From a virus, in the IMG/VR virus record IMGVR_UViG_3300045988_060017, positions 1 to 36,670 of that record: a DNA stretch of 36,670 nucleotides. One strand, given 5' to 3'. Under the pieces are notes generated by a model. The model searched no databases, had not been told where the DNA came from, and worked only from the letters and a program-made list of their open reading frames with translations. The position numbers and the translations under genes were made by a program. Of this stretch, positions 2,638-36,670 are shown piece by piece; the stretch's first letter is position 1, and each line of letters begins with the position of its first letter.

Positions 2638-3212
2638 GCCGATTAAATCAAATATTAATACTAGCCGTCGCACTGGCGGCTATATTGCTTTTCTTCGCGT
2701 TCGGTAAGATACGGAAGCAGAGAGCCGAGATAGACCGCCTAGATTGGAATATAGAGGCGGTAAATACCAAGTCGATGCAATACAAGTCAACGGCGGGAGA
2801 TTACGCGGAGCGTGTGAATACTTTGACCCTAGAGAAATCAGAGCTAGAAATGTTTAATGCAGACCTTAATAATAAGGTACGCGAGCTAGGAATAAAGAAC
2901 CGGGAACTAAAGAATGCCACACGCACCGAGACCGTTACGAGAATAGACACAGTAATAAAGACCGTAGTAGACCCTACCGGGACGAAAAGAACCGCGCACT
3001 ATAATGACGGTTGGAACGATATAAAGGTTGAGAGCCTTCCGGACAGTACGAAATTAGAGGTACATTGCACTGATTCGCTAGATGTAATTACGCACGTCCG
3101 GCAAAAGAAGTTCCTTTTCTTTAGAATCGGCAAACCGAAACCCTACACAACCGTCTCAAACAAAAACCCGAAAAGTACGCTTCATATTAGCTTTTCGGCA
3201 AAATTCGACTAA
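2634..3212 (+). CDS. Membrane-anchored coiled-coil protein, spanin-like (i-spanin/Rz-like candidate) (192 aa)
   Basis: ATGA overlap with the endolysin stop. It has an N-terminal TM helix (ILILAVALAAILLFFAFG) followed by a charged coiled-coil-like segment. It is the last gene of the lysis cassette. Confidence 0.4.
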   Translation: MSRLNQILILAVALAAILLFFAFGKIRKQRAEIDRLDWNIEAVNTKSMQYKSTAGDYAERVNTLTLEKSELEMFNADLNNKVRELGIKNRELKNATRTETVTRIDTVIKTVVDPTGTKRTAHYNDGWNDIKVESLPDSTKLEVHCTDSLDVITHVRQKKFLFFRIGKPKPYTTVSNKNPKSTLHISFSAKFD

Positions 3213-3220
3213 AAATATTT

Positions 3221-3570
3221 ACAATTGCAACCTATCTATTACACCTATCTGTGACACATAACTAGCTGTGTATCAAGTTACAAACTTTTTGCTGTCACAG
3301 ATAAACATTTTTCATCAGTGACACTAAACGTGCAGTAAATAAAGTACTTATGGCTAGTGTAATAGATGTAATAGATAAATCGTATAGAGATAAAATAGAA
3401 AAGTGCTATAAATGTTAATATATATCAAATCGTATATAGTATATTTTCATTTTAAACTAATAGGGAAAATGCTGTTACATCTGTGACATTACGCCTAACT
3501 TGCTGAACTACTGCACGTTAGGCGTCATTCTTCATCTGTGACGCTAGCAATGTATCTGTGACACCCCGCA
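3221..3570 (+). repeat. Non-coding iteron module, copy A, a direct repeat of 19691-20060. Six CTGTGACAC-type sites surround an AT-rich core.
   Basis: Conserved blocks against copy B are 3271-3324 (51/54), 3355-3395 (38/41) and 3511-3542 (30/32). Sites are ctgtgacac 3250-3258, ctgtcacag 3292-3300 (palindromic), cagtgacac 3316-3324, ctgtgacat 3481-3489, ctgtgacgc 3536-3544 and ctgtgacac 3556-3564. Confidence 0.9.
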
Positions 3571-3616
3571 AAATTGTTAATCGTAGTTAAATACACAAAG
3601 TTTTTTCGGAAAATGT

Positions 3617-3646
3617 TTTGTAGTTCAGAAATAAGCCGTATCTTTG
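3617..3646 (+). promoter_or_regulatory. Early promoter P1 (Bacteroidota type): -33 TTTG at 3617-3620, -7 TATCTTTG at 3639-3646
   Basis: gttttgtagttcagaaataagccgTATCTTTGcaatgtcg. It is near-identical to the cassettes at 11422 and 12951 and has an 18-nt spacer. Confidence 0.75.
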
Positions 3647-3863
3647 CAATGTCGATAAGGAAATGAGAACCCCGCCAATCGTAACCAAAGGGGGTGAGAA
3701 GGGAAACACGGACGGTATCCCAATTCATTTGAAAAGACGGTGCGGTATCCGCTTAATTGAAGCTATAAAGCCGGAATCCTTATAACGACAAAAACTGTAA
3801 ACCATACTAAATTTTATAGCACTATTCCGGAAGGCCGGAGAATCGGACTAATAATTACTAGAT

Positions 3864-4214
3864 ATGGGATATTTAAAAATTTACCGACTAGAAAAGTTTT
3901 TCTACGATACGGTAAAAAAGCGAATCTTTGAATGTCTTAACCTGTGGACGATAAATGAGCTATACGGGCGCAAAGGCGCTGTTAGCATAGCGGAAGTATT
4001 TGCAAAGGAACTAGAGGAAGAAGAAGCCGGAAAAAGATTTGAATATAACATCCGGGGCTTTATCATACCGAACGCCGACAAGTATCTATCCGTCTACGAG
4101 CAAGCGCGCCAACGCGCCTTTATAGATTACTTATACTCTCGGAAGGGGCAATTTAGAACGATGAAGGAAACAAAAGAAAATTGGAAAAGAAATGGAAGAA
4201 AAAAGAGAAAATGA
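3864..4214 (+). CDS. Hypothetical early protein with a basic C-terminal tail (116 aa)
   Basis: First ORF after P1, with ordinary non-repetitive protein composition. No motif recognised. Confidence 0.6.
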   Translation: MGYLKIYRLEKFFYDTVKKRIFECLNLWTINELYGRKGAVSIAEVFAKELEEEEAGKRFEYNIRGFIIPNADKYLSVYEQARQRAFIDYLYSRKGQFRTMKETKENWKRNGRKKRK

Positions 4215-4380
4215 CCTACTGACAGTAGCACAGGCCGCACGCCTAGTAGGGTGCACGGAAAACGCTATCCGGTATCAGTTGCAAACCGGGAATCTTACCA
4301 GATTTGAAAATGCAGCCGGGAAGATACGTGTATCACGTAATGAAGTATTAGATAAACTTTTAAATTTTGAAAAGAAATGA
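4192..4380 (+). CDS. Small helix-turn-helix DNA-binding protein (excisionase/MerR-like HTH_17 type) (62 aa)
   Basis: LLTVAQAARLVGCTENAIRYQLQTGNL is a classic HTH_17-like pattern. The gene overlaps both neighbours. Confidence 0.7.
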   Translation: MEEKRENDLLTVAQAARLVGCTENAIRYQLQTGNLTRFENAAGKIRVSRNEVLDKLLNFEKK

Positions 4381-4961
4381 GAATTAATTTTGAACTGAAC
4401 ACCGAGAACGAGAACCCGAGTATGTTACAGGCAACCGCCGAGTATCTGAACAACCTTGCAAAGATTAACGTAGGGCACGCAATTGAACCCGTACAGGGAT
4501 TTGCAGAACCTAAACCGGGTAATTGTGCATGTGAGGAAGAAAAGCCCTTAGAGGAGCTTAAAAAGGGTGAGAGTATTGCCGAATCTATTGAGGCAGTAAA
4601 GGAACAACTAGCCGCCGAGAAAGAAGAAGCTAAAAAGACTACTAGACGTAGAGCGGTTAAAAAGGAAGAACCGGAACCAGCTAAAGAACCGGAACCAGCC
4701 AAAGAACCGGAACCAGCTAAAGAACCGGAACCAGCTAAAGAACCGGAACCCGCTAAAGAACCGGAACCCGCTAAAGAACCGGAACCCGCTAAAGAACCCG
4801 CCACAATCGAACAGGCCAAGGCCGTTGCAATGAAGGCGTTAAATAAGGGCCGCCGGGATGTGGTAAAAGACGCATTCGGATATGTGGGTGCAACGTCTTT
4901 CCCTTCACTTCCCGCCGAGAATTACGCCGACTTTATCAAGTACATAGAAGAAAACTTGTAA
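4377..4961 (+). CDS. Hypothetical early protein with a (EPEPAK)x7 low-complexity linker (194 aa)
   Basis: ATGA overlap upstream. Layout is an N-terminal domain, a charged helix, seven EPEPAK repeats and a conserved-looking C-terminal domain (AFGYVGATSFPSLPAENYADFIKYIE). It lies immediately upstream of the nuclease gene. Confidence 0.75.
   Translation: MRINFELNTENENPSMLQATAEYLNNLAKINVGHAIEPVQGFAEPKPGNCACEEEKPLEELKKGESIAESIEAVKEQLAAEKEEAKKTTRRRAVKKEEPEPAKEPEPAKEPEPAKEPEPAKEPEPAKEPEPAKEPEPAKEPATIEQAKAVAMKALNKGRRDVVKDAFGYVGATSFPSLPAENYADFIKYIEENL
4668..4793 (+). repeat. 18-bp coding tandem repeat GAACCGGAACC(A/C)GC(T/C)AAA x7 (EPEPAK)
   Basis: Seven contiguous units. Units 1, 3 and 4 read ..ccagctaaa, unit 2 reads ..ccagccaaa and units 5-7 read ..cccgctaaa. 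A truncated unit follows (gaacccgcc). Confidence 0.95.
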
Positions 4962-8888: not shown

Positions 8889-11270
8889 ATGAATAAGTAC
8901 ACATTGTCGGTTGCAGGTAGTTCAGCGTCTTTAAAATGGTCTACTATCAGATATACGTGGGATGATTTTTTGGAACGCCTCAACCGTGATATACGCAGTA
9001 CGGAGACTATGCGCGATTTTGATAGGCTAGACCGCACGGCGCGCGCCAATCTGAAAGACGTTGGCGGATATATGGCGGGGGAACTTTCCGGCACTAGACG
9101 TCTTAAAAGTGCGGTATTATCACGGTCTATGATAACATTAGACGTTGACTATGCTGACAGTCTTTTTCCTGTGGAGTTTGAGACTAGGTTTCCCGGTGTA
9201 GCAGCCGTTATATACAATACACGTTCAGACCGGGAAAAGAGCAGGCGGTTCCGTGTGGTTATTCCGTTCGCCGAAGAAGTGCAGGACGCGGCGCAATACG
9301 AAGCCGCAGCGCGTAAAATGGCGGAATTGCTAGGTATAGACTTGTTCGACCCTACCACATTCCAAGCCGAACGGATGATGTATTGGCAATCTCTCTCATC
9401 AGACCAACCGAAAGTTTTCGAAGTGTTCGAGGGTGAGCCTATCAGCGCCGAATACCTGTTATCCCTGTACGGGAATAACGAGGAGTGGCGAGATATCCGT
9501 AATTGGGCGTTCAAGTCAGACCAGGAGAAAGAGACACGCGCAATTGTCAGTAAGGCAATGGCGCAGAACCCCCGCGAAAAGGCGGGTCTAGTAGGGGCGT
9601 TTTGCCGGGCTTATTCCGTTCCGGCAGCTATCGAAAAGTACCTTTCGGACGTGTACGAGATAGCGCCGGGAAACGACCGTTACACTTACAAGGCGGGGCA
9701 TAGTGTGGGCGGTATGATAGTATTTGACGACCTATTTTGTTTCTCGTACCACTCCACCGACCCGATATCGGACGGGCACGCATACAACGCATACGACCTT
9801 GTGCGTGTGCATAAGTTCGGGCACCTAGGCAAAGAGGACAGCACAAAGGAGATGAACAAACTGGTTTGCGCGGATAAGGAATGCGTTAAAGACATGGTTA
9901 CGCCGGATGCCGACCTAGACGATTTCGACGATTACGGGGATGCAGTGAAGTCAGATAGCACCAAGGAAGTTACGGAACTTGTGTGGGATTTAGACGGAAA
10001 AGGAAACAAGCAAGTAACAGTTAACAACTTCGTTAACGCCTTCAAGTCCGACCCCCTGTTAAATGGGCTGTTGGCTTATGACATGCTAAAGGAGACGATA
10101 GTATTTACCCGCCCGTCATTCACCGCCAAGGGAAGCAAGAAGGGCGACCTAGTCAATGATACGGATATCTCCATTATCAAGGGCCGCATAGAACGCATGC
10201 ACGGGATATACAATGATGCCAAGCTGAACGACGCGATAGAACAGGTTAGCAGTGATAACGCTTTCCACCCTATCAAATTGTATCTAGAGTCGTTGACATG
10301 GGACGGAGTACCGCGCATTGACACATTTCTAGTTGATTATATGGGGGCCGAGGATAACGCATATACTCGCGAGGCGTTCCGCAAAATGCTGCTCGCAGCC
10401 GTTACCCGCATATACGAGCCGGGGCGAAAGTTCGACACCGCTCTAGTGTTCTATTCCGAGCAGGGGGTAGGAAAGTCTACTCTTATCCAGCGGCTTTCTA
10501 AAGGCTGGTTCAACGACTCGTTAACCAACTTATCCGGTAAAGAGTCATACGAGGCTATTCAATTTGCGTGGCTCGTGGAACTAGCCGAATTATCAGCCCT
10601 AAGAAAATCGGACGTTGAGGCTGTTAAGAACTTCATATCGAAGCGGGAAGATACGTACAGGGGCGCATACGCTAGACGCGTGAAAACTCATAAGAGACAA
10701 TGCGTATTTTTCGGCTCTACCAATGATGACGAATTTCTGAAAGACGCGACCGGAAACAGACGATTTTTTCCCGTGGAGGTGAAACGCACAAGGAAAACCC
10801 GCCTTATATTTGAACCGGAATTTGATGCCATTGTAGACCAACTTTGGGCGGAAGCAATGGAGGGGTACATGTTAGGTGAAGCCCTCACACTATCGGATGA
10901 AGCGGAAGCCATTGCCGGCGGAACGCGCGAGGAGTTCACAGAGCGCACACCGATACAAGGTCTTATAGAGGAATACCTAGATAGACTTTTCCCGGCTGAC
11001 TATGAAGATAGATTCCTAGCGCAACGCCTGGATTTCCTTAACGGTGATTTAGGGGAGGAAGGAACGGAAACTAAAAACTCTTTCAGTCTTATTGAATTAT
11101 GGACGGAAGCACTAGGAAGGCGGAAAGACGAGTACACAGTAGTTAAGGCCCGCGAGCTATCCAACGCGGTAAAGGCGCTGAAAGGGTGGAAGCGCGACAA
11201 GCAGGCCCGGCAGAAAATATACGGCCCGCAGGTTATTTATAGGCGAGTGGGTGCGGGTATTACAAAATAA
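8889..11270 (+). CDS. Primase-helicase: N-terminal AEP (prim-pol-like) domain fused to a VirE/D5-like SF3 helicase (793 aa)
   Basis: AEP-like motifs LDVDY (DxD) and FSYHSTD (sxH). Walker A is SEQGVGKST and Walker B-like is WLVELAEL. It lies directly downstream of the polymerase. Confidence 0.85.
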   Translation: MNKYTLSVAGSSASLKWSTIRYTWDDFLERLNRDIRSTETMRDFDRLDRTARANLKDVGGYMAGELSGTRRLKSAVLSRSMITLDVDYADSLFPVEFETRFPGVAAVIYNTRSDREKSRRFRVVIPFAEEVQDAAQYEAAARKMAELLGIDLFDPTTFQAERMMYWQSLSSDQPKVFEVFEGEPISAEYLLSLYGNNEEWRDIRNWAFKSDQEKETRAIVSKAMAQNPREKAGLVGAFCRAYSVPAAIEKYLSDVYEIAPGNDRYTYKAGHSVGGMIVFDDLFCFSYHSTDPISDGHAYNAYDLVRVHKFGHLGKEDSTKEMNKLVCADKECVKDMVTPDADLDDFDDYGDAVKSDSTKEVTELVWDLDGKGNKQVTVNNFVNAFKSDPLLNGLLAYDMLKETIVFTRPSFTAKGSKKGDLVNDTDISIIKGRIERMHGIYNDAKLNDAIEQVSSDNAFHPIKLYLESLTWDGVPRIDTFLVDYMGAEDNAYTREAFRKMLLAAVTRIYEPGRKFDTALVFYSEQGVGKSTLIQRLSKGWFNDSLTNLSGKESYEAIQFAWLVELAELSALRKSDVEAVKNFISKREDTYRGAYARRVKTHKRQCVFFGSTNDDEFLKDATGNRRFFPVEVKRTRKTRLIFEPEFDAIVDQLWAEAMEGYMLGEALTLSDEAEAIAGGTREEFTERTPIQGLIEEYLDRLFPADYEDRFLAQRLDFLNGDLGEEGTETKNSFSLIELWTEALGRRKDEYTVVKARELSNAVKALKGWKRDKQARQKIYGPQVIYRRVGAGITK

Positions 11271-11274
11271 TGAG

Positions 11275-11282
11275 TATCTTTG
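11275..11282 (+). promoter_or_regulatory. Orphan -7-like box TATCTTTG just after the primase stop codon
   Basis: The octamer is identical to the -7 box of P1-P4. No TTTG lies at the expected -33 position. Confidence 0.3.
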
Positions 11283-11353
11283 CCGCGAGAGAATCAATTA
11301 CTACTCATTCAATTCATCACCAACTACTATTTTAAGGGGTTTACAGTTCAGAA

Positions 11354-11389
11354 AGGAGACGTTGCGAAACGTTTCCTTTTCTTTATTTG
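11354..11389 (+). terminator. Rho-independent terminator
   Basis: aggagacgtt (11354-11363), GCGA tetraloop, aacgtttcct (11368-11377). This gives a 10-bp stem with one G-U pair, followed by tttctttatttg. Confidence 0.85.
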
Positions 11390-11421
11390 TGTTAAATCTA
11401 CAAAGAATTTTCTCAAAGAGT

Positions 11422-11451
11422 TTTGCAGTTCAAAAAGTATCCGTATCTTTG
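11422..11451 (+). promoter_or_regulatory. Early promoter P2: -33 TTTG at 11422-11425, -7 TATCTTTG at 11444-11451
   Basis: gttttgcagttcaaaaagtatccgTATCTTTGcaatgtca is nearly identical to P1. Confidence 0.75.
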
Positions 11452-11493
11452 CAATGTCAATAAGAGATTAATAACCCTTTAAAATTAAAAGAT

Positions 11494-12915: not shown

Positions 12916-12950
12916 ACTGATATAACGAATGTTAATGTTTTGACAAAAAG

Positions 12951-12981
12951 TTTGGTAGTCCGGAAAGTATGCGTATCTTTG
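12951..12981 (+). promoter_or_regulatory. Early promoter P3: -33 TTTG at 12951-12954, -7 TATCTTTG at 12974-12981
   Basis: gtttggtagtccggaaagtatgcgTATCTTTGaagtgtca is the third copy of the cassette, with a 19-nt spacer. Confidence 0.7.
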
Positions 12982-13019
12982 AAGTGTCAAAAGGAAATAA
13001 CCACTTAAAATTAGAAGAT

Positions 13020-13160
13020 ATGAAAAAGTATTATGTAAATGGAAAAGAGATATCAGAACAAGAAGCGAAAGCTATTGAGGCAAAGAACGCCGAATATATG
13101 GGTAGCACCGATTTTTCCCTGTGGGCTAAATGCGAATTCATTACAGTAATAACCCTTTAA
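13020..13160 (+). CDS. Hypothetical small protein (46 aa); start moved from the ORF-track position 12969
   Basis: ATG 12969 lies inside the P3 -7 region. ATG 13020 is in frame and is preceded by the conserved leader ataaccacttaaaattagaagat. Confidence 0.5.
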   Translation: MKKYYVNGKEISEQEAKAIEAKNAEYMGSTDFSLWAKCEFITVITL

Positions 13161-15227: not shown

Positions 15228-16599
15228 TTTACATAAGTATCAGATAACGGCCGTCAACCATATCGAGGACAACCCGTTCGCCGCGCTCTTTCTTGATATG
15301 GGACTAGGGAAAACCGTGTCCACGTTAACGGCCGTGTCTGACCTTATAGAAAAATTTGAGGTAACTAAGGTATTGGTAGTAGCCCCTAAGAGAGTAGCCG
15401 AAATGACGTGGATAGACGAGGTTAACAACTGGGAGCAGTTAAGGCACCTACGTGTATCTGTCATAAAGGGCACCGCCAGGCAACGCGAGATTGCCGCCCG
15501 GGCGGATGCGGATGTGTACACGGTTAGCCGGGATAATCTCGTGTGGCTCTTACAAATGTGGGGTGGGCAAAAAGTTCCCTATGATATGTTAGTACTTGAC
15601 GAATTAAGTAGTTTCAAGAATCACAGCGCCAAACGTTTCAAGGCTGCAAAGGTTATCCGCCGGAGTTGTTCCCGTGTCGTAGGTCTTACCGGAACGCCTT
15701 CCCCAAATGGACTTATTGACCTGTGGGCGCAAATGTACTTGATAGACGGGGGGCAAAGACTGGGAAAGACAATAACCGATTACCGTGCTAACTACTTCCG
15801 CCCTGGGCGACAGAACGCCGGGATAATATACGAGTACAAGCCACTGGCCGATACCGAGGAAGTGATAGGCGGTAAGATATCCGACATAACATTATCAATG
15901 AAGGCCCTTGACTTCCTGGATATGCCGGAAGTATCCTACATCAACAACTATGTAGAACTATCTCCGAAAGTAAAGAAGGCATACGACAAGTTCGAGGAAG
16001 AACAACTTCTAACACTGCTTGACGCTACCGGGGGCGATTCAAAGGAAATAACCGCTATTAACGCGGCAGCCCTTACAAACAAGCTACTACAATACGCGGG
16101 CGGCGCGGTGTATGATGAAGTACGGGACGTGTACAACGTGCACGACGAAAAGATAGAGACCCTTATAGAAATGGTTGAGGCTGCGAACGGAGCGCCCGTA
16201 CTTGTGGCGTATGCGTTCAAGCACGAGGAGGCCCGGATAATGGAGGCGTTGAAACCGTTCGGGGCTAGAAGGCTTAACACCGTGGATGATGTAAGGGACT
16301 GGAACGAGGGAAAGATTCCCGTACTGGTTACCCACCCGGCGAGCGCGGGCCACGGGCTTAACATGCAGAAGGGCGGAAACCGTATAATATGGTTCAGTGC
16401 TACATGGAGCCTAGAATTATACCAGCAGTTCAACGCGCGTTTGTGGAGGCAGGGACAGAAGAATAGCGTATTTGTTCACCACTTGATAAGCAAGGGAACA
16501 GTAGACGAGCGGGTAATAGACGTGCTTAACAAGAAGGCGACCGCGCAGGACGGGTTAATGAATATAGTTAAGGAACTTATTAAAAAACATAAGATATGA
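15211..16599 (+). CDS. SNF2-family (SF2) helicase/ATPase (462 aa)
   Basis: Motifs seen: LHKYQ (Q motif), DMGLGKT (Walker A), VLDELS (DExx), LTGTP, C-terminal HPASAGHGLNMQ and WRQGQ. Confidence 0.9.
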   Translation: MLRRTNLHKYQITAVNHIEDNPFAALFLDMGLGKTVSTLTAVSDLIEKFEVTKVLVVAPKRVAEMTWIDEVNNWEQLRHLRVSVIKGTARQREIAARADADVYTVSRDNLVWLLQMWGGQKVPYDMLVLDELSSFKNHSAKRFKAAKVIRRSCSRVVGLTGTPSPNGLIDLWAQMYLIDGGQRLGKTITDYRANYFRPGRQNAGIIYEYKPLADTEEVIGGKISDITLSMKALDFLDMPEVSYINNYVELSPKVKKAYDKFEEEQLLTLLDATGGDSKEITAINAAALTNKLLQYAGGAVYDEVRDVYNVHDEKIETLIEMVEAANGAPVLVAYAFKHEEARIMEALKPFGARRLNTVDDVRDWNEGKIPVLVTHPASAGHGLNMQKGGNRIIWFSATWSLELYQQFNARLWRQGQKNSVFVHHLISKGTVDERVIDVLNKKATAQDGLMNIVKELIKKHKI

Positions 16600-17648
16600 A
16601 TGTATTGAGTTTATTCGACGGCATGAGTTGCGGACAAATCGCACTTACCGAACTGGGGTGTTTCCCGGACAAGTACTACGCTTCCGAGGTGGACAAGTTC
16701 GCCATACAGCAGACTATGAGCGTGTTTCCGGACACTATCCAACTAGGGGACGTTACCAAGGTAGATGTATCGCAATTAGATAAGATTGATTTGCTGATAG
16801 GCGGAAGCCCTTGCCAATCGTTTTCATTTGCCGGAAAACAGGTGGGTATGGTTACAACCGATAAGGTAGATATAACCGACTTGCAGACCTACCTAGACCT
16901 CAAGGAAATGGGATTTGAATTCGAGGGGCAATCATATCTATTTTGGGAGTATATGCGCATACTGACAGACATACGGAAGTATAACCCGAACGTCAAGTTC
17001 CTGTTGGAAAACGTAGTTATGGCTAAGAAATGGGAAGCCGTGCTAACCAAGGCTATCGGAGTGGAACCCGTCAAGATTAACAGTAACTTAGTATCCGCAC
17101 AGAACCGGAAAAGATTGTATTGGACTAACATAGCCGAGATACCCCAACCGAAAGACGAAGGTATATTAATCCGTGATATCCTAGAGGACGAAGTAGATGA
17201 AAAATATTATATATCATCTAAAGCCCTTGAGGGTATGGTTAACCACGCCAGGGTTAACGCCGAGAAGGGAAACGGTTTCGGCGCGCGTGTGGTTTCGCCG
17301 GGAGGGAAGGCGAACACGCTTTTGCAAAGGTGTTACAAAGACGGGAAAGATAATCTTATAATAGCTGCCGGCCGTGGAAGGGTGTGCGAGGACGGGGTTA
17401 CTAGGCAGCACCTAGAGCCGAGGAAGGACGGAAAGTCTGATTGTCTCACTACGGTACAGAAAGGAAACCCATTGATTGAGAATCGCAGCACGTTAAGACG
17501 GTTAACGCCTAGAGAGTGCGCACGGTTGCAGACCGTACCGGATTGGTACAAGTGGGTGGTATCTGACACACAGATATACCGGATGTGCGGTAACGGGTGG
17601 ACGGTGAAGGTTATAGAACATATATTGAGTCACTTATTTAAAAACTGA
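16596..17648 (+). CDS. DNA (cytosine-5)-methyltransferase (350 aa)
   Basis: Motif I LSLFDGMSCG, motif IV GGSPCQSFS, motif VI ENV, motif VIII QNRKRLY, motif IX RRLTPRECARLQTVPD and motif X GNGWTV. There is an ATGA overlap with the SNF2 stop. Confidence 0.95.
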   Translation: MNVLSLFDGMSCGQIALTELGCFPDKYYASEVDKFAIQQTMSVFPDTIQLGDVTKVDVSQLDKIDLLIGGSPCQSFSFAGKQVGMVTTDKVDITDLQTYLDLKEMGFEFEGQSYLFWEYMRILTDIRKYNPNVKFLLENVVMAKKWEAVLTKAIGVEPVKINSNLVSAQNRKRLYWTNIAEIPQPKDEGILIRDILEDEVDEKYYISSKALEGMVNHARVNAEKGNGFGARVVSPGGKANTLLQRCYKDGKDNLIIAAGRGRVCEDGVTRQHLEPRKDGKSDCLTTVQKGNPLIENRSTLRRLTPRECARLQTVPDWYKWVVSDTQIYRMCGNGWTVKVIEHILSHLFKN

Positions 17649-18705: not shown

Positions 18706-18845
18706 TTAAGAAGTTTTGCAAATGGATGAGTAGCCCGGAAGATTTGCCCGGGCTAGTAGTGAGAATGTTAACAGCTATTTTAATAACGGTGGTTTGGGCG
18801 TTCTTGCTAGCGCTGATAGCCGCAATAACAATGTGCAGATTATAA
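18702..18845 (+). CDS. Small single-pass membrane protein (47 aa), below the ORF-track size cutoff
   Basis: The ORF translates to MIKKFCKWMSSPEDLPGLVVRMLTAILITVVWAFLLALIAAITMCRL. It has an ATGA overlap with the upstream stop and a TAATG overlap with the downstream start. Confidence 0.6.
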   Translation: MIKKFCKWMSSPEDLPGLVVRMLTAILITVVWAFLLALIAAITMCRL

Positions 18846-19417
18846 TGGGGCAGAAACTAATGGAGTGCAGAAAGAAACCGCTAGAGTTCGTAATACAAGA
18901 CCTAGCCACGATACTGAATGTAAATGAGTTCTTTCTATTCAAGTTCTGCAAGGAGAACGGGATATATTACAGGAAGGCTAAAAATTTCCCTTACCACTTG
19001 GTAAAGGCAATGGAGATTTGCGAGGTGATTCCAAAATTAAGAAGGGAGATAGCTACGGTACGAGACGACCGGAACACGAGAACGGAGCCAAACCGGATAC
19101 CAACTATTGAGACCCTATTTATCAAGGACAACGAAAAGACCAAGCTAGACAAGTTCAATATGGAGGATATCCCTAGGATATGGTGCCCGGGAACGGGGAC
19201 GGTTAATTACCGAGGCAGGGTAGAATCAAATGTAATATACCGCCTTAACTATTATAAGGACGGAACCGTATCACTAGACATGTGGAAATGGTCGTTCCAT
19301 AAGTGGGAAATGGTGGAACCGTGCAGGGCGCTAAGGAATCGTAAGGAAATTTTACGCGAATGGGCAGGCAAACATAGCTTTATAGCGAGGGATAAAGACG
19401 GTAAAGTAGTCGAATAG
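18845..19417 (+). CDS. Hypothetical protein, last gene of the early arc (190 aa); start moved from TTG 18794
   Basis: ATG 18845 is in frame and coupled to the small membrane ORF. The N-terminal segment LEFVIQDLATILNVNEFFLFKFCKENGI is weakly HTH-like. Confidence 0.55.
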   Translation: MGQKLMECRKKPLEFVIQDLATILNVNEFFLFKFCKENGIYYRKAKNFPYHLVKAMEICEVIPKLRREIATVRDDRNTRTEPNRIPTIETLFIKDNEKTKLDKFNMEDIPRIWCPGTGTVNYRGRVESNVIYRLNYYKDGTVSLDMWKWSFHKWEMVEPCRALRNRKEILREWAGKHSFIARDKDGKVVE

Positions 19418-19420
19418 CTG

Positions 19421-19672
19421 AAAAAACTTTCTTCTCAAATTTCTATGTTATTACAATTTTAGTGATGACACAAAGATTTTGAGAGGAAAGTTTTTTCTCA
19501 TTTTATTAACATTTTAGGTTAATTGATACTAAATCGTTGTAAACAATATTTTTTGAGAGACAATTTGAAAATAACGTTTTTCGGGCAAAAAGAGTGTTTT
19601 AAAGGATATTGAGAGAAAAGTTTTTTGAGAGAAAATATACAATCAGCCGTTTTACTCATTTCTTCTCAAAAA
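19421..19672 (+). repeat. Cluster of six TTTGAGA(G/A)(G/A)AAAG(TTTTTT)-type iterons in both orientations
   Basis: Minus-orientation copies are at 19421-19439 and 19658-19674. Plus-orientation copies are at 19478-19496, 19549-19561, 19608-19626 and 19621-19636. 19421-19439 and 19478-19496 form a 19-bp inverted repeat with one G-U position. Confidence 0.8.
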
Positions 19673-19690
19673 AGTGTACTAAAAGGTTTT

Positions 19691-20060
19691 ACAATTCTGT
19701 TTTATCTGTGACACTTATCAATGACGCGTAAAGCGCTGATTATCAAGCTACAAACTTTTTGCTGTCACAGGTAAAGATTTTTCATCAGTGACACGTAACT
19801 GACTGATATTTATATAGTTATATATAGTGTAATAGATGTAATAGATGATTTGTATAGAGATAAAAATGAATGATTTTAGATTAGTGATTTGATATATATT
19901 AACTGATATTAATTAATATAAAATCAAAGGTGTTATTTTCGTATTTTTACCTTCCAGGGAAATATCAATTACATCTGTGACACTGGCTGTAACTCGCTGT
20001 GTCACTGCACGTTACGTGTCATTCTTCATCTGTGACACATCTATGACATCTATTACACCC
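19691..20060 (+). repeat. Non-coding iteron module, copy B, a direct repeat of 3221-3570. It carries seven CTGTGACAC-type sites.
   Basis: Sites are ctgtgacac 19706-19714, ctgtcacag 19762-19770, cagtgacac 19786-19794, ctgtgacac 19975-19983, ctgtgtcac 19997-20005 (inverted), ctgtgacac 20030-20038 and ctatgacat 20041-20049. It shares blocks with copy A. Confidence 0.9.
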
Positions 20061-20138
20061 CTGTGTTTCGAGACGTTAAGTTGCTGTAAAACAGATAGTT
20101 ACGGTACGTAAACCACGATTATAGGCATTTAGCGCATA

Positions 20139-20164
20139 TTTGAGGTAGGAATGTAGTATATTTG
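20139..20164 (+). promoter_or_regulatory. Candidate late promoter: TTTG at 20139-20142, -7 TATATTTG at 20157-20164
   Basis: The TAnnTTTG box lies 28 nt upstream of the terS ATG. The spacer to the TTTG is only 14 nt, which is suboptimal. Confidence 0.45.
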
Positions 20165-20192
20165 CTGTCAATAATTAAGAATCAATTTATGT

Positions 20193-22070: not shown

Positions 22071-22231
22071 TACAGTTATACGAGCGTGTGCAGGTTACCG
22101 AGGACGGAAGGACAGGAACCGTATTGGAGTCGGATGTATTGGGAGTTGTCGTACAATACGACGGAACGGATGAACAAGAGTGGCTATTTTATGAACAAGT
22201 TGAACAATTAGAATTTGACGAATATGAGTAA
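22067..22231 (+). CDS. Small acidic protein (54 aa), below the ORF-track size cutoff
   Basis: The ORF translates to MIQLYERVQVTEDGRTGTVLESDVLGVVVQYDGTDEQEWLFYEQVEQLEFDEYE. It has an ATGA overlap with the terL stop, and its stop overlaps the next ATG (22224). Confidence 0.6.
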   Translation: MIQLYERVQVTEDGRTGTVLESDVLGVVVQYDGTDEQEWLFYEQVEQLEFDEYE

Positions 22232-22907
22232 AAAAGGATTTTACGGCCTTGAATGGCTGATACTGCAAGAGCGGACCAACTGGAAAGGAAAGGTTAAAAA
22301 TGTCTTTCGGCGCGTGTACTATGCACTTTGTCGGTATAATAACTGCAAACAGTTAGAATATATTTGTAACTTGCACCCGTGTTATGAGGGGGGCCTAACT
22401 TCCGACCAAAGTAAGTTATTGGAAAAATTGTCGGAGTACGTCAAGGCCTCCCCGTTCATAACCAAAAAGCTAAAGACCGTGTACGTCATTCCGAGCATTG
22501 AGAAAGTCACGCTATGGCAGCTAATCGAGACGAGACGAGCCGAGACGGCAACGGAGAAGGTTACGAAGTGGTGCACCCCGGTTGAGGGACAGACAGCCGA
22601 GTATTCACCCGACAACGTATATCACTTGCTAACCGCGATGAAGTACATACGGGAGCAGATTAAGGCGGCCGACGATTTGGAACGAACGCTATTCCCACAG
22701 GGCGCAGGAGGGCCGGACGCAGAGCCGGACACGCTAAAGGAGGCAAAGAACATATTGACGCTAGTACAGGCTACGGCGGAGTTGTTCAACTGCTCGTTCG
22801 AGGAGGCGAAACGGATAAATTACCTAGACGCTATATTGGCACTGTCCAAGAGGCACGAGGAAGTAGAAAAGGAAAAAGCGGAAATGAAGAAACATTTTAA
22901 CAAATAA
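22224..22907 (+). CDS. Hypothetical late protein (227 aa); start moved from TTG 22215
   Basis: ATG 22224 is in frame, three codons after the TTG used by the ORF track. No motif recognised. Confidence 0.6.
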   Translation: MSKKGFYGLEWLILQERTNWKGKVKNVFRRVYYALCRYNNCKQLEYICNLHPCYEGGLTSDQSKLLEKLSEYVKASPFITKKLKTVYVIPSIEKVTLWQLIETRRAETATEKVTKWCTPVEGQTAEYSPDNVYHLLTAMKYIREQIKAADDLERTLFPQGAGGPDAEPDTLKEAKNILTLVQATAELFNCSFEEAKRINYLDAILALSKRHEEVEKEKAEMKKHFNK

Positions 22908-36285: not shown

Positions 36286-36670
36286 ATGACTAAATTAACT
36301 GATATTGGACAGATTTTGGCGCTATGCGCGAAAATGACTAACTTAAAGTTGGAAGTAGTGTGCGGCTTTGATAGACAGTTCGCCACGAAATGGTACGAAA
36401 ATGAGTATCTTACCGGACGCCACGTGCGGTATGTGATGAAACCGGATAAATTCATAGCGTCCGTAGAGGACGGAAAGGTTTACCGGGCATTTAACACTCC
36501 GGATGCCAAGGCGGTTGAACTCATGGAAAGTAATCCGGAATACCGTGATTTCTTTATTGACATGGAGTCCGTTCCTAACACTATTCCGGAACTAGGTGAT
36601 GACCCGTTCACACCGGAACCGGAAGTAACAGAACCGGAAGTAACAGAACCGGAAGTAACAGAACCGGAAG
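36286..36670 (+). CDS. 5' portion of the junction-spanning gene (196 aa in total with 1..206): a globular N-terminal domain followed by PEVTE repeats
   Basis: ATG 36286 follows the leader caatttaaactaaaattaa. There is no stop before the window end, and the frame continues at position 1. Confidence 0.7.
   Translation, partial: MTKLTDIGQILALCAKMTNLKLEVVCGFDRQFATKWYENEYLTGRHVRYVMKPDKFIASVEDGKVYRAFNTPDAKAVELMESNPEYRDFFIDMESVPNTIPELGDDPFTPEPEVTEPEVTEPEVTEPE
36616..36670 (+). repeat. 15-bp coding tandem repeat GAACCGGAAGTAACA, end-of-window part
   Basis: Units lie at 36616-36630, 36631-36645 and 36646-36660. A 10-nt partial unit is completed by positions 1-5. Confidence 0.95.

Follow-up and report, generated by a model that had tools for sequence, protein, structure and literature searches.

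The window analysed here, a stretch of 36,670 nucleotides from the IMG/VR virus record IMGVR_UViG_3300045988_060017, corresponds to a complete, circular phage genome that measures 36,610 bp when the 60-nt overlap in its assembly is counted once, and in which the + strand carries every gene. The genome contains two copies of a non-coding module of about 370 bp (350-390 bp), here called A and B, which are co-oriented and paralogous and which stand at the two boundaries between early and late genes. On balance, the modules are probably paired origin-type sites that would be read by the phage primase-helicase, in a manner comparable to the oriL/oriR sites of phage SPP1. Their positions are as follows:

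Module A, 3204..3567, + strand: direct repeat of 19676-20061, with orthologues in all relatives examined.
Module B, 19676..20061, + strand: direct repeat of module A, kept upstream of terS in all relatives examined.

The original prediction, made from the sequence of the window, had described two copies of one repeat in the same orientation, and this was borne out by three comparisons. A repeat search paired 3200-3400 with 19670-19870 (201 nt, 76%) and 3412-3542 with 19906-20036 (131 nt, 72%), MAFFT alignment of A with B gave a mean column identity of 78%, and BLASTN of 3200-3567 against 19670-20061 returned E=8e-47. The block identities of 51/54, 38/41 and 30/32 were found again by direct reading, and the alignment also confirmed AT-rich cores of unequal length, with a 24-nt insertion in the core of B. 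The limits first proposed, 3221-3570 and 19691-20060, located the modules correctly, the better bounds being approximately 3204-3567 and 19676-20061. The two non-coding gaps around the modules (3213-3863, 651 nt, and 19418-20192, 775 nt) are indeed the largest of the genome, but they are not its only large ones as had been stated, the third being 11271-11493 with 223 nt. On the circle, A and B are separated by 16.5 kb one way and by 20.1 kb the other way. Module A sits between a terminator-like hairpin of the late operon and the early promoter, and module B lies about 130 nt upstream of terS, each module occupying a gap between a terminator and the next promoter. The predicted placement at the early/late boundaries therefore stands, with one copy before the early/replication operon and the other before terS.

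Each module is built around an AT-rich core of 93-117 nt, with a GC content of 13-18%:

AT-rich core of A, 3377..3469: holds the invariant TATAGAGATAAAA (3383-3395) and the CTAATAGGGAAAA box (3457-3469).
AT-rich core of B, 19847..19963: 24 nt longer than the A core and of a different allelic type.

The least stable 100-bp stretch of the whole genome falls in B (19819-19918, -1.005 kcal/mol per step) and the second least stable falls in A (3362-3461, -1.024 kcal/mol per step), both cores lying about 4 standard deviations (SD) off the genome mean of -1.365 kcal/mol per step (SD 0.086).

The cores are flanked by short iterons. In the count against shuffled controls that had been set out beforehand, the word YATCTGTGACAC, with up to one mismatch and on both strands, matched the genome 10 times against 0.13 expected; all 10 matches fell within the modules, and none of 100 shuffled controls reached that number. 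The word CTGTGACAC, again with up to one mismatch, gave 17 matches where 3.77 were expected, 13 of them in the modules (6 in A and 7 in B). The degenerate motif ATCWRTKACRY has 18 sites, all 18 in the modules, against 0.42 expected, a post-hoc statistic that is biased because the motif was derived from the data, the prior motif YATCTGTGACAC being the fair test. The tandem GTAATAGAT x2 noticed in the original prediction was recovered by Tandem Repeats Finder (TRF) at 3358-3376 and 19824-19847, and belongs to the iteron word family with its orientation reversed: ATCTATTAC.ATCTATTACAC is its reverse complement. The sites are arranged as follows:

Left iteron set of A, 3234..3324: ATCTATTACAC at 3234-3244 (+), ATCTGTGACAC at 3247-3257 (+), CTGTCACAGAT at 3292-3302 with the iteron on the - strand, and ATCAGTGACAC at 3314-3324 (+).
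Family-invariant box ACAAACTTTTTGC, 3280-3292: within the left iteron set of A.
Two tandem inverted iterons of A, 3357..3376, - strand: 9-nt-spaced, abutting the left core edge (GTGTAATAGATGTAATAGAT).
Right iteron set of A, 3472..3564, + strand: tandem CTGTTACAT.CTGTGACAT at 3472-3489, ATCTGTGACGC at 3534-3544 and ATCTGTGACAC at 3554-3564.
Inverted repeat in the right set of A, 3491-3499 / 3517-3525: ACGCCTAAC/GTTAGGCGT.
Left iteron set of B, 19704..19794: 19704-19714 (+), 19717-19727 (+), CTGTCACAG at 19762-19770 (iteron on the - strand) and 19784-19794 (+).
Two tandem inverted iterons of B, 19827..19846, - strand: bordering the core of B on its left.
Right iteron set of B, 19964..20058, + strand: tandem ATCAATTACAT/ATCTGTGACAC at 19964-19983, palindromic CTGTGTCACTG at 19997-20007, and iterons at 20028-20038, 20039-20049 and 20048-20058.

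Iteron spacings of 13, 67 and 55 nt are identical between A and B (13 and 67 nt in the left sets). Each module has 8-9 sites of the strict motif, or 10-12 when degenerate copies are included, around its AT-rich centre; origins of Staphylococcus aureus pathogenicity islands (SaPIs) have 6-12 iterons and an AT-rich centre, each side of which carries two or more iterons, oppositely oriented (PMC9371898). The geometry in the window is opposed as well, with two tandem inverted sites to the left of the core and tandem direct sites to the right: at the core edges, under the degenerate motif, B has two inverted and two direct sites, and A has two inverted sites, one clean direct site and one degenerate direct site. 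The inverted pair at the left core edge has an equivalent in every clade of relatives, and the 2+2 opposed geometry with identical 6-mers was found in 6 of 15 modules across clades versus 10 of 1,500 block-shuffled controls. The repeat search gave no other repeat family, and no other iteron/AT-rich candidate was found in the genome.

The window phage is a member of a virulent group of Bacteroidales siphophages with genomes of about 34-38 kb, its nearest cultured relative being Bacteroides phage BC669P1 (about 81% nucleotide identity). The modules were compared with those of 15 other complete genomes (seven BC phages, BO1, BK735P1, BK687P1, SJC01, BF1-8, BU2-2, BM127P2 and BF503P2), a set in which helicase identity falls to 42%, leaving aside BF503P2, which has the pair in a reduced form; an anchor scan of IMG/VR contributed 36 further loci from about 26 contigs. 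Self-BLAST found the direct-repeat pair in 15 of 15 genomes at the same two positions (in reduced form in BF503P2), so that in all of them one copy stands before the early/replication operon and the second before terS. Conservation of the pair in related phages, put forward in the original prediction as a check on its claim, is thus what the genomes examined present. When 46 modules were clustered, A grouped with A and B with B, that is, by position and not by genome, with identities of 84-99% between orthologues; A-B pairs were 64-80% identical within one genome and 61-65% identical across genomes. Because the modules cluster by position and orthologues are closer than A-B pairs, the duplication predates the family.

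The small excess of identity within genomes reflects occasional gene conversion, A and B being as much as 80-91% identical in some phages. The AT-rich cores exist as two or three allelic types that swap between the A and B positions, which explains the mosaic look of the modules: module B of contig 038561 (c038561B) has that contig's own A-type core, and in L004 the two modules share a core. Such movement is evidence that gene conversion between the modules occurs in nature. The core of module B in L004 also contains a tandem duplication of about 52 nt. In the window's clade, 3 of 104 iteron columns of module A are variable compared with 31 of 243 elsewhere (p=0.003), and in module B the figures are 2 of 104 versus 78 of 267, the latter inflated by the swapped core. 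The presence of the pair in every relative and the avoidance of iterons by substitutions uphold the earlier argument for selection on discrete sites, as opposed to a recent duplication. The module was found in no plasmids, and an anchor scan of 185,579 bacterial genomes gave only three matches, in contigs of Planctomycetota metagenome-assembled genomes (MAGs), which were taken as chance uninspected, leaving no copies from prophages or plasmids for comparison.

The order of elements is kept across clades: a TTTACAA start, outer iterons, the invariant ACAAACTTTTTGC, an inverted iteron, a direct iteron, a TAACTnnCTGA box, the two tandem 9-nt-spaced inverted iterons, TATAGAGATAA, the variable AT-rich core, an ATAGrGAAA box, tandem direct iterons, a TAAC...GTTA repeat and outer iterons ending in CCCC. 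A hairpin or cruciform at the TAAC...GTTA repeats was considered and dropped, as the flanks are G-rich on both sides, not complementary and without consistent covariation; beyond TAAC/GTTA, the inverted repeat found no support from covariation. Within this constant layout, the iteron word itself changes by clade, GGAACA and TGTGCA being among the clade words:

Window clade: ATCTGTGACAC / ATCTATTACAC.
BC phages: looser nnyGTGACrC.
BO1 group: ATCTATTACAC / ATCTTATCCAC.
SJC01 and BF1-8: TATCTATCCA.
BM127P2: GGAACA / GTTCC.
BU2-2: ATCTGTGCA.

The clade-specific spelling combined with the conserved layout points to a phage-encoded reader, and argues against a universal host reader such as DnaA. No DnaA boxes were seen in the modules of the window, as judged by eye with no formal test; on direct reading, the iterons of some clades resemble TTATCCACA (CTTATCCACT in BO1 and the SJC01 word given above) and those of the window do not. 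An instructive relative is BF503P2 (L054), a 53-kb phage that has only the replication genes in common with the window and carries a different terminase. It uses a word of its own, CATTTTRCNAY, with 8 matches against 1.34 expected, 6 of the 8 lying in two intergenic regions (22214-22280 and 45846-46083) that have an 86-nt repeat in common and that precede the replication genes and the operon of the different-type terminase, respectively. This pairing is suggestive of a tie between the modules and the replication genes, and only suggestive as a test of replication versus packaging because the second region also precedes a packaging operon, albeit of a different type.

The best candidate for the putative iteron reader, judging from sequence comparisons, is the primase-helicase, which is present in every module-bearing phage:

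Primase-helicase, 8889..11270, + strand: 793 amino acids (aa), proposed iteron reader, VapE-like domain (5e-77).
Variable C-terminal domain (CTD) of the primase-helicase, approximately residues 691-793, nt 10959-11267.

Residues 377-714 match 7pds (SaPI1 Rep1) with E=1.4e-77, as expected of a superfamily 3 (SF3) helicase of the Rep/PriRep family. A profile of the C-terminal region matched SaPI1 Rep1 at 2e-34, in an alignment that runs past K346, where the Rep1 CTD starts. The last 70-100 residues or so are the least conserved part of the protein (0.24-0.34 versus 0.41-0.76 elsewhere), with the exception of a linker bin at residues 331-360 (0.30). An AlphaFold2 (AF2) model of the CTD has a predicted local distance difference test (pLDDT) score of 53 overall and of 70-77 over the last 60 residues or so, in which the elements follow a beta-alpha-alpha-alpha-beta-beta order. 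A Foldseek search with this low-confidence model placed 7pds first (probability 0.95, E=0.012), the remaining matches being mostly winged-helix DNA-binding domains and none of them significant. A helicase C-terminus that evolves fast alongside a changing iteron word would be expected for a reader that co-evolves with its sites.

The proteins first proposed as binders are weaker candidates by this comparison. The products of ORF (open reading frame) 3864-4214 and of the helix-turn-helix (HTH) gene 4192-4380 are 83-90% identical between the window and the BC phages despite their differing iterons, and have no detectable counterpart in BU2-2 or BM127P2, which keep the pair; that of ORF 18845-19417 is missing from SJC01, BF1-8 and BM127P2, with a marginal match in BU2-2. 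Covariation was tried as a means of telling the helicase CTD from TerS as the reader and was set aside, both termini being fast and the independent clades too few. Among the ORFs scanned there was no gene for an O/Rep-type initiator, nor any Pfam/PHROG family of gp38-type origin-binding proteins, DnaB-type helicases or helicase loaders.

In SaPIs, the Rep proteins act as self-loading initiator helicases and recognise iterons of 5-6 nt through a winged helix at the C-terminus (PMC9371898), and the same picture holds for Cch2 of the staphylococcal cassette chromosome mec (SCCmec) (PMC7581432). By analogy, we infer helicase binding to the words, melting of the core and a start of replication at the modules. 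In the proposed mechanism, the primase-helicase would bind the short iterons through its variable, winged-helix-like C-terminal domain, and the iteron sets facing apart across the core would position helicase assemblies in opposite orientations. The AT-rich core would then open and admit the helicase, its fused primase, and the PolA and SSB (the protein that binds single-stranded DNA) of the phage. Either both sites would fire, or one would be the working origin and the other an auxiliary site for the same protein, a role that has been proposed for SPP1 oriR and P4 crr. The original prediction had left the choice between origins and operators open; its origin side is backed by the least stable cores and by the SaPI Rep homologue, and the binders it named are the part that was weakened.

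Several observations weigh against an origin function. The GC skew is uninformative as an origin map, being monotonic because every gene lies on one strand. The modules are not adjacent to the helicase gene, lying 5.3 kb upstream and 8.4 kb downstream of it, and their 350-390 bp hold invariant boxes (ACAAACTTTTTGC, TATAGAGATAA and TAACTnnCTGA) that the model leaves unexplained. Both copies always lie shortly before the start of an operon, a position that would suit a transcriptional role just as well. In the window, module A shows the opposed 2+2 geometry only under the degenerate motif, and some relatives (L005 and the BO1 group) have hardly any enrichment of the iteron words. In addition, the CTD model is poor (pLDDT 53), with no individually significant fold match, and the N-terminus of TerS diverges quickly too. 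The region directly downstream of the helicase gene, 11271-11493, was also considered as an origin and rejected, as it contains only a terminator hairpin and a promoter.

A rather unlikely elaboration is that the two sites form a coupled pair splitting the circle into early and late arcs. One site would fire first, and the other, bound by the same helicase-initiator, would arrest or handcuff the fork for a switch to concatemers, or would fire later; replication timing, the early-late transcription switch and packaging would then be tied through one co-evolving code. As a corollary, if the direct repeats recombined, the genome would be resolved into two sub-genomic circles with one origin each.

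Among the alternatives to an origin function, that of cis-regulatory arrays survives best, and we still consider it unlikely. Here a phage protein bound to the iterons would co-ordinate the early-late switch through looping, or through upstream activation or silencing. Each copy is just upstream of an operon start in every phage examined, the clade-specific spelling of the iterons would be expected for a phage-encoded factor, and one of the first early genes codes for an HTH_17 protein. The relevant promoters are:

Early promoter, 3617..3646, + strand: TTTG...TAtcTTTG, about 50 nt downstream of module A and outside it.
-7 box of the terS/late promoter, 20157..20164, + strand: TAtaTTTG, lying about 95 nt downstream of module B and lacking a canonical -33 element.

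Of the two promoters called in the original prediction, that at 3617-3646 fits the Bacteroidota consensus TTTG-N-TAnnTTTG and that of terS has only the -7 box; because the -33 element is lacking, the late promoter probably depends on an activator, which also suits a regulatory array. Against this reading, the modules do not overlap the promoters but stop short of the -33 positions by about 50 nt in A and about 80 nt in B, with the last iterons ending at 3564 for a -33 at 3617 and at 20058 for a TTTG at 20139. The genome has only four full-consensus Bacteroidota promoters (3617, 11422, 12097 and 12951), all in the early arc and none inside a module, and the three other early promoters have no module. 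Each promoter has its own conserved proximal elements, a swappable core of minimal stability is not a feature of operator arrays, and the HTH protein and the 116-aa product of the first early ORF (ORF116) show the conservation and the absences already described.

A further alternative, which we regard as improbable, is that the modules are two packaging (pac) sites, in which TerS would bind the flanking repeats and the terminase would cut the centre. Module B occupies the classical place of a pac site, about 130 nt upstream of terS, and the TerL protein is of the Terminase_3 headful type; headful packaging has been inferred for the related SJC01 cluster, and the window phage is probably a headful packager as well. 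The pac site of phage P1 is a headful packaging signal made of repeats that flank a central segment, and the modules resemble it in this respect. The same can be said of the pacL-pacC-pacR arrangement of SPP1 (PMC6316719). The window is unlike these sites in having two copies, the second far from terS, and an extremely unstable core: module A, though 16.6 kb away from terS, shows the same degree of conservation as B. We know of no pac phage that needs two sites, and extreme duplex instability is not, to our knowledge, a property of pac sites. The fast-diverging N-terminus of TerS, which would suit a co-evolving reader, is a Lys/Asp-rich tail, residues 61-233 being 80-87% conserved, and BF503P2 still has paired iteron regions with a different terminase. 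Finally, a separate array found at B only, TTGAGAGRAAA x6 (19428-19669), makes a pac candidate of at least equal merit. Its six copies, four on the + strand and two on the - strand, compare with 1.49 expected and occur only upstream of module B, in a region that holds a long inverted repeat (19420-19439 / 19478-19497) and that contains tandem GAGAGAAAAGTTTTTT units in relatives. This array may represent a cluster of terminators, or else the actual pac region.

It is more doubtful still that the modules are simply recombination substrates or module boundaries with no dedicated reader, serving the reshuffling of early and late arcs between co-infecting phages or seeding recombination-dependent replication. 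The movement of core alleles between A and B and the high A-B identity in some phages are in line with this, as are the mosaic nature of the family and the presence of a recombination-type nuclease, an annealing SSB and a VRR-NUC nuclease among the phage proteins. However, the copies cluster by position and not by genome, substitutions specifically avoid the short words, and between clades the sequence is exchanged under a constant layout, which would not be expected of mere homology tracts. Lastly, that the modules are two copies of a non-coding RNA is highly improbable, since, against the conserved TAAC...GTTA inverted repeats on both sides of the core, there is no Rfam match (whole window at the gathering threshold, and none at E<=1 for 3180-3900) and no Bacteroidota promoter inside the modules, the A+T-rich centre (83-87%) varies in sequence and length, the flanks of the inverted repeats do not co-vary, and the conserved words occur in both orientations, as for duplex DNA sites.

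The surroundings of the promoters present features of their own. Three of the four full-consensus promoters lie in cassettes of about 87 nt (3586-3672, 11391-11477 and 12938-13022) that share 78% identity and are conserved in relatives; a similarity extending well beyond the -33 and -7 elements suggests that they have regulator sites or UP-type sites in common. From the early promoter to the first gene runs a leader of 210 nt (3652-3863) that is highly conserved even where the flanking DNA varies. SJC01 has it twice in tandem (L011, 20984-21210), in BM127P2 it is found again at another place, and in BK735P1 it is deleted. A single apparently compensatory change distinguishes the window from BO1 (ACCCC...GGGGT to GCGCC...GGGCGT), and a structured RNA in the leader was considered and not retained, with no Rfam match, z=0.36 versus shuffles and an alignment too poor for alifold. 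An opposite-strand ORF of 67 aa, 3525-3728 (-), was judged spurious, as it overlaps the promoter and the leader and has no start in BK735P1; several GenBank relatives annotate similar ORFs across module A.

The two arcs delimited by the modules have the following gene content:

Early/replication arc: three small ORFs including the HTH_17 protein, DUF2800 nuclease, gp2.5-like SSB, PolA, the 793-aa VapE-type primase-helicase, VRR-NUC nuclease, SNF2 helicase and C5 methylase.
Late arc: terS, Terminase_3 TerL, structural genes, holin, M15 peptidase and DUF6549 protein.

The C5 cytosine methylase gene (16596-17648) varies in the family, some relatives having a Dam-type or shorter methylase and others none. 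The early protein with the greatest length variation among relatives is the product of ORF 4377-4961, which contains an 18-nt coding tandem repeat at 4648-4834 (about 8 copies, KEPEPA-like). The overlap of the window ends (1-89 and 36601-36670) falls within another coding tandem repeat, of 15 nt and EPEVT-like, in an ORF running across the junction.

Few Bacteroides phages have been cultured, and the literature that could be searched gave no description of the modules, nor of a mapped origin, packaging signal or regulatory site for this phage group, in agreement with the earlier statement that no equivalent was known for Bacteroidota phages. The individual parts have precedents, namely iterons with a DNA unwinding element (DUE), SF3 self-loading initiators and the paired origins of SPP1. 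What is new is the combination of two paralogous, co-oriented modules of about 370 bp at the early/late boundaries, family-wide and with a co-evolving word code. Were they origins, the modules would offer a concrete hypothesis for how DNA synthesis is begun in a widespread family of gut phages, in which the helicase CTD would read clade-specific words of 9-11 nt, and the clades would offer natural specificity variants for the study of DNA recognition by SF3 self-loading initiators. The modules could also serve as phage-dependent replicons and as markers for replication-based estimates of activity in viromes. Moreover, the conserved duplication would make the purpose of a second origin-like site, a question of the SPP1 type, testable in a second, unrelated system.

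Of the known systems, the origins of SaPIs, which are phage-inducible chromosomal islands (PICIs), come closest: iterons flank a central AT-rich region, with at least two per side and opposed, the initiator is a primase-helicase of the same family, and its C-terminal domain and the iteron spelling vary between elements. The differences are that the sites in the window are not directly downstream of the helicase gene, that there are two copies per genome, and that the modules are 2-3 times longer and contain extra invariant boxes; furthermore, the element is a virulent Bacteroidota siphophage as opposed to a Gram-positive satellite, and binding by the reader is here predicted. SPP1, a virulent headful siphophage, likewise has two similar sites of direct repeats with an AT-rich DUE, oriL and oriR, about 13 kb apart on the circular map and bound by one phage protein, the second lying in a transcription-bracketed stretch among late genes where fork stalling and a theta-to-sigma switch have been proposed (PMC6316719). 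Its initiator gp38, acting with a DnaB-type helicase and a loader, is unrelated to the primase-helicase of the window, its repeats are unrelated in sequence, and oriL is inside a gene, whereas the sites of the window are intergenic, co-oriented and paralogous over about 370 bp. Phage ICP1 also has one origin early and another late. In phage P4, iterons occur at two separated cis sites, ori and crr, spaced by about 4.5 kb and both bound by the alpha protein. Unlike the sites of the window, ori and crr do not form paralogous modules around an AT-rich centre, and the P4 primase is DnaG-type. P4 alpha nevertheless unites a primase, an SF3 helicase and a C-terminal winged helix in one polypeptide (PMC2777425), as would be the case for the window's protein. 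Lambda and plasmid origins, as far as they are outlined in the review cited in PMC7145576, place iterons beside an AT-rich unwinding element under a replicon-specific reader, and the modules of the window differ from this outline in that their iterons flank the putative DUE on both sides, in opposed orientation.

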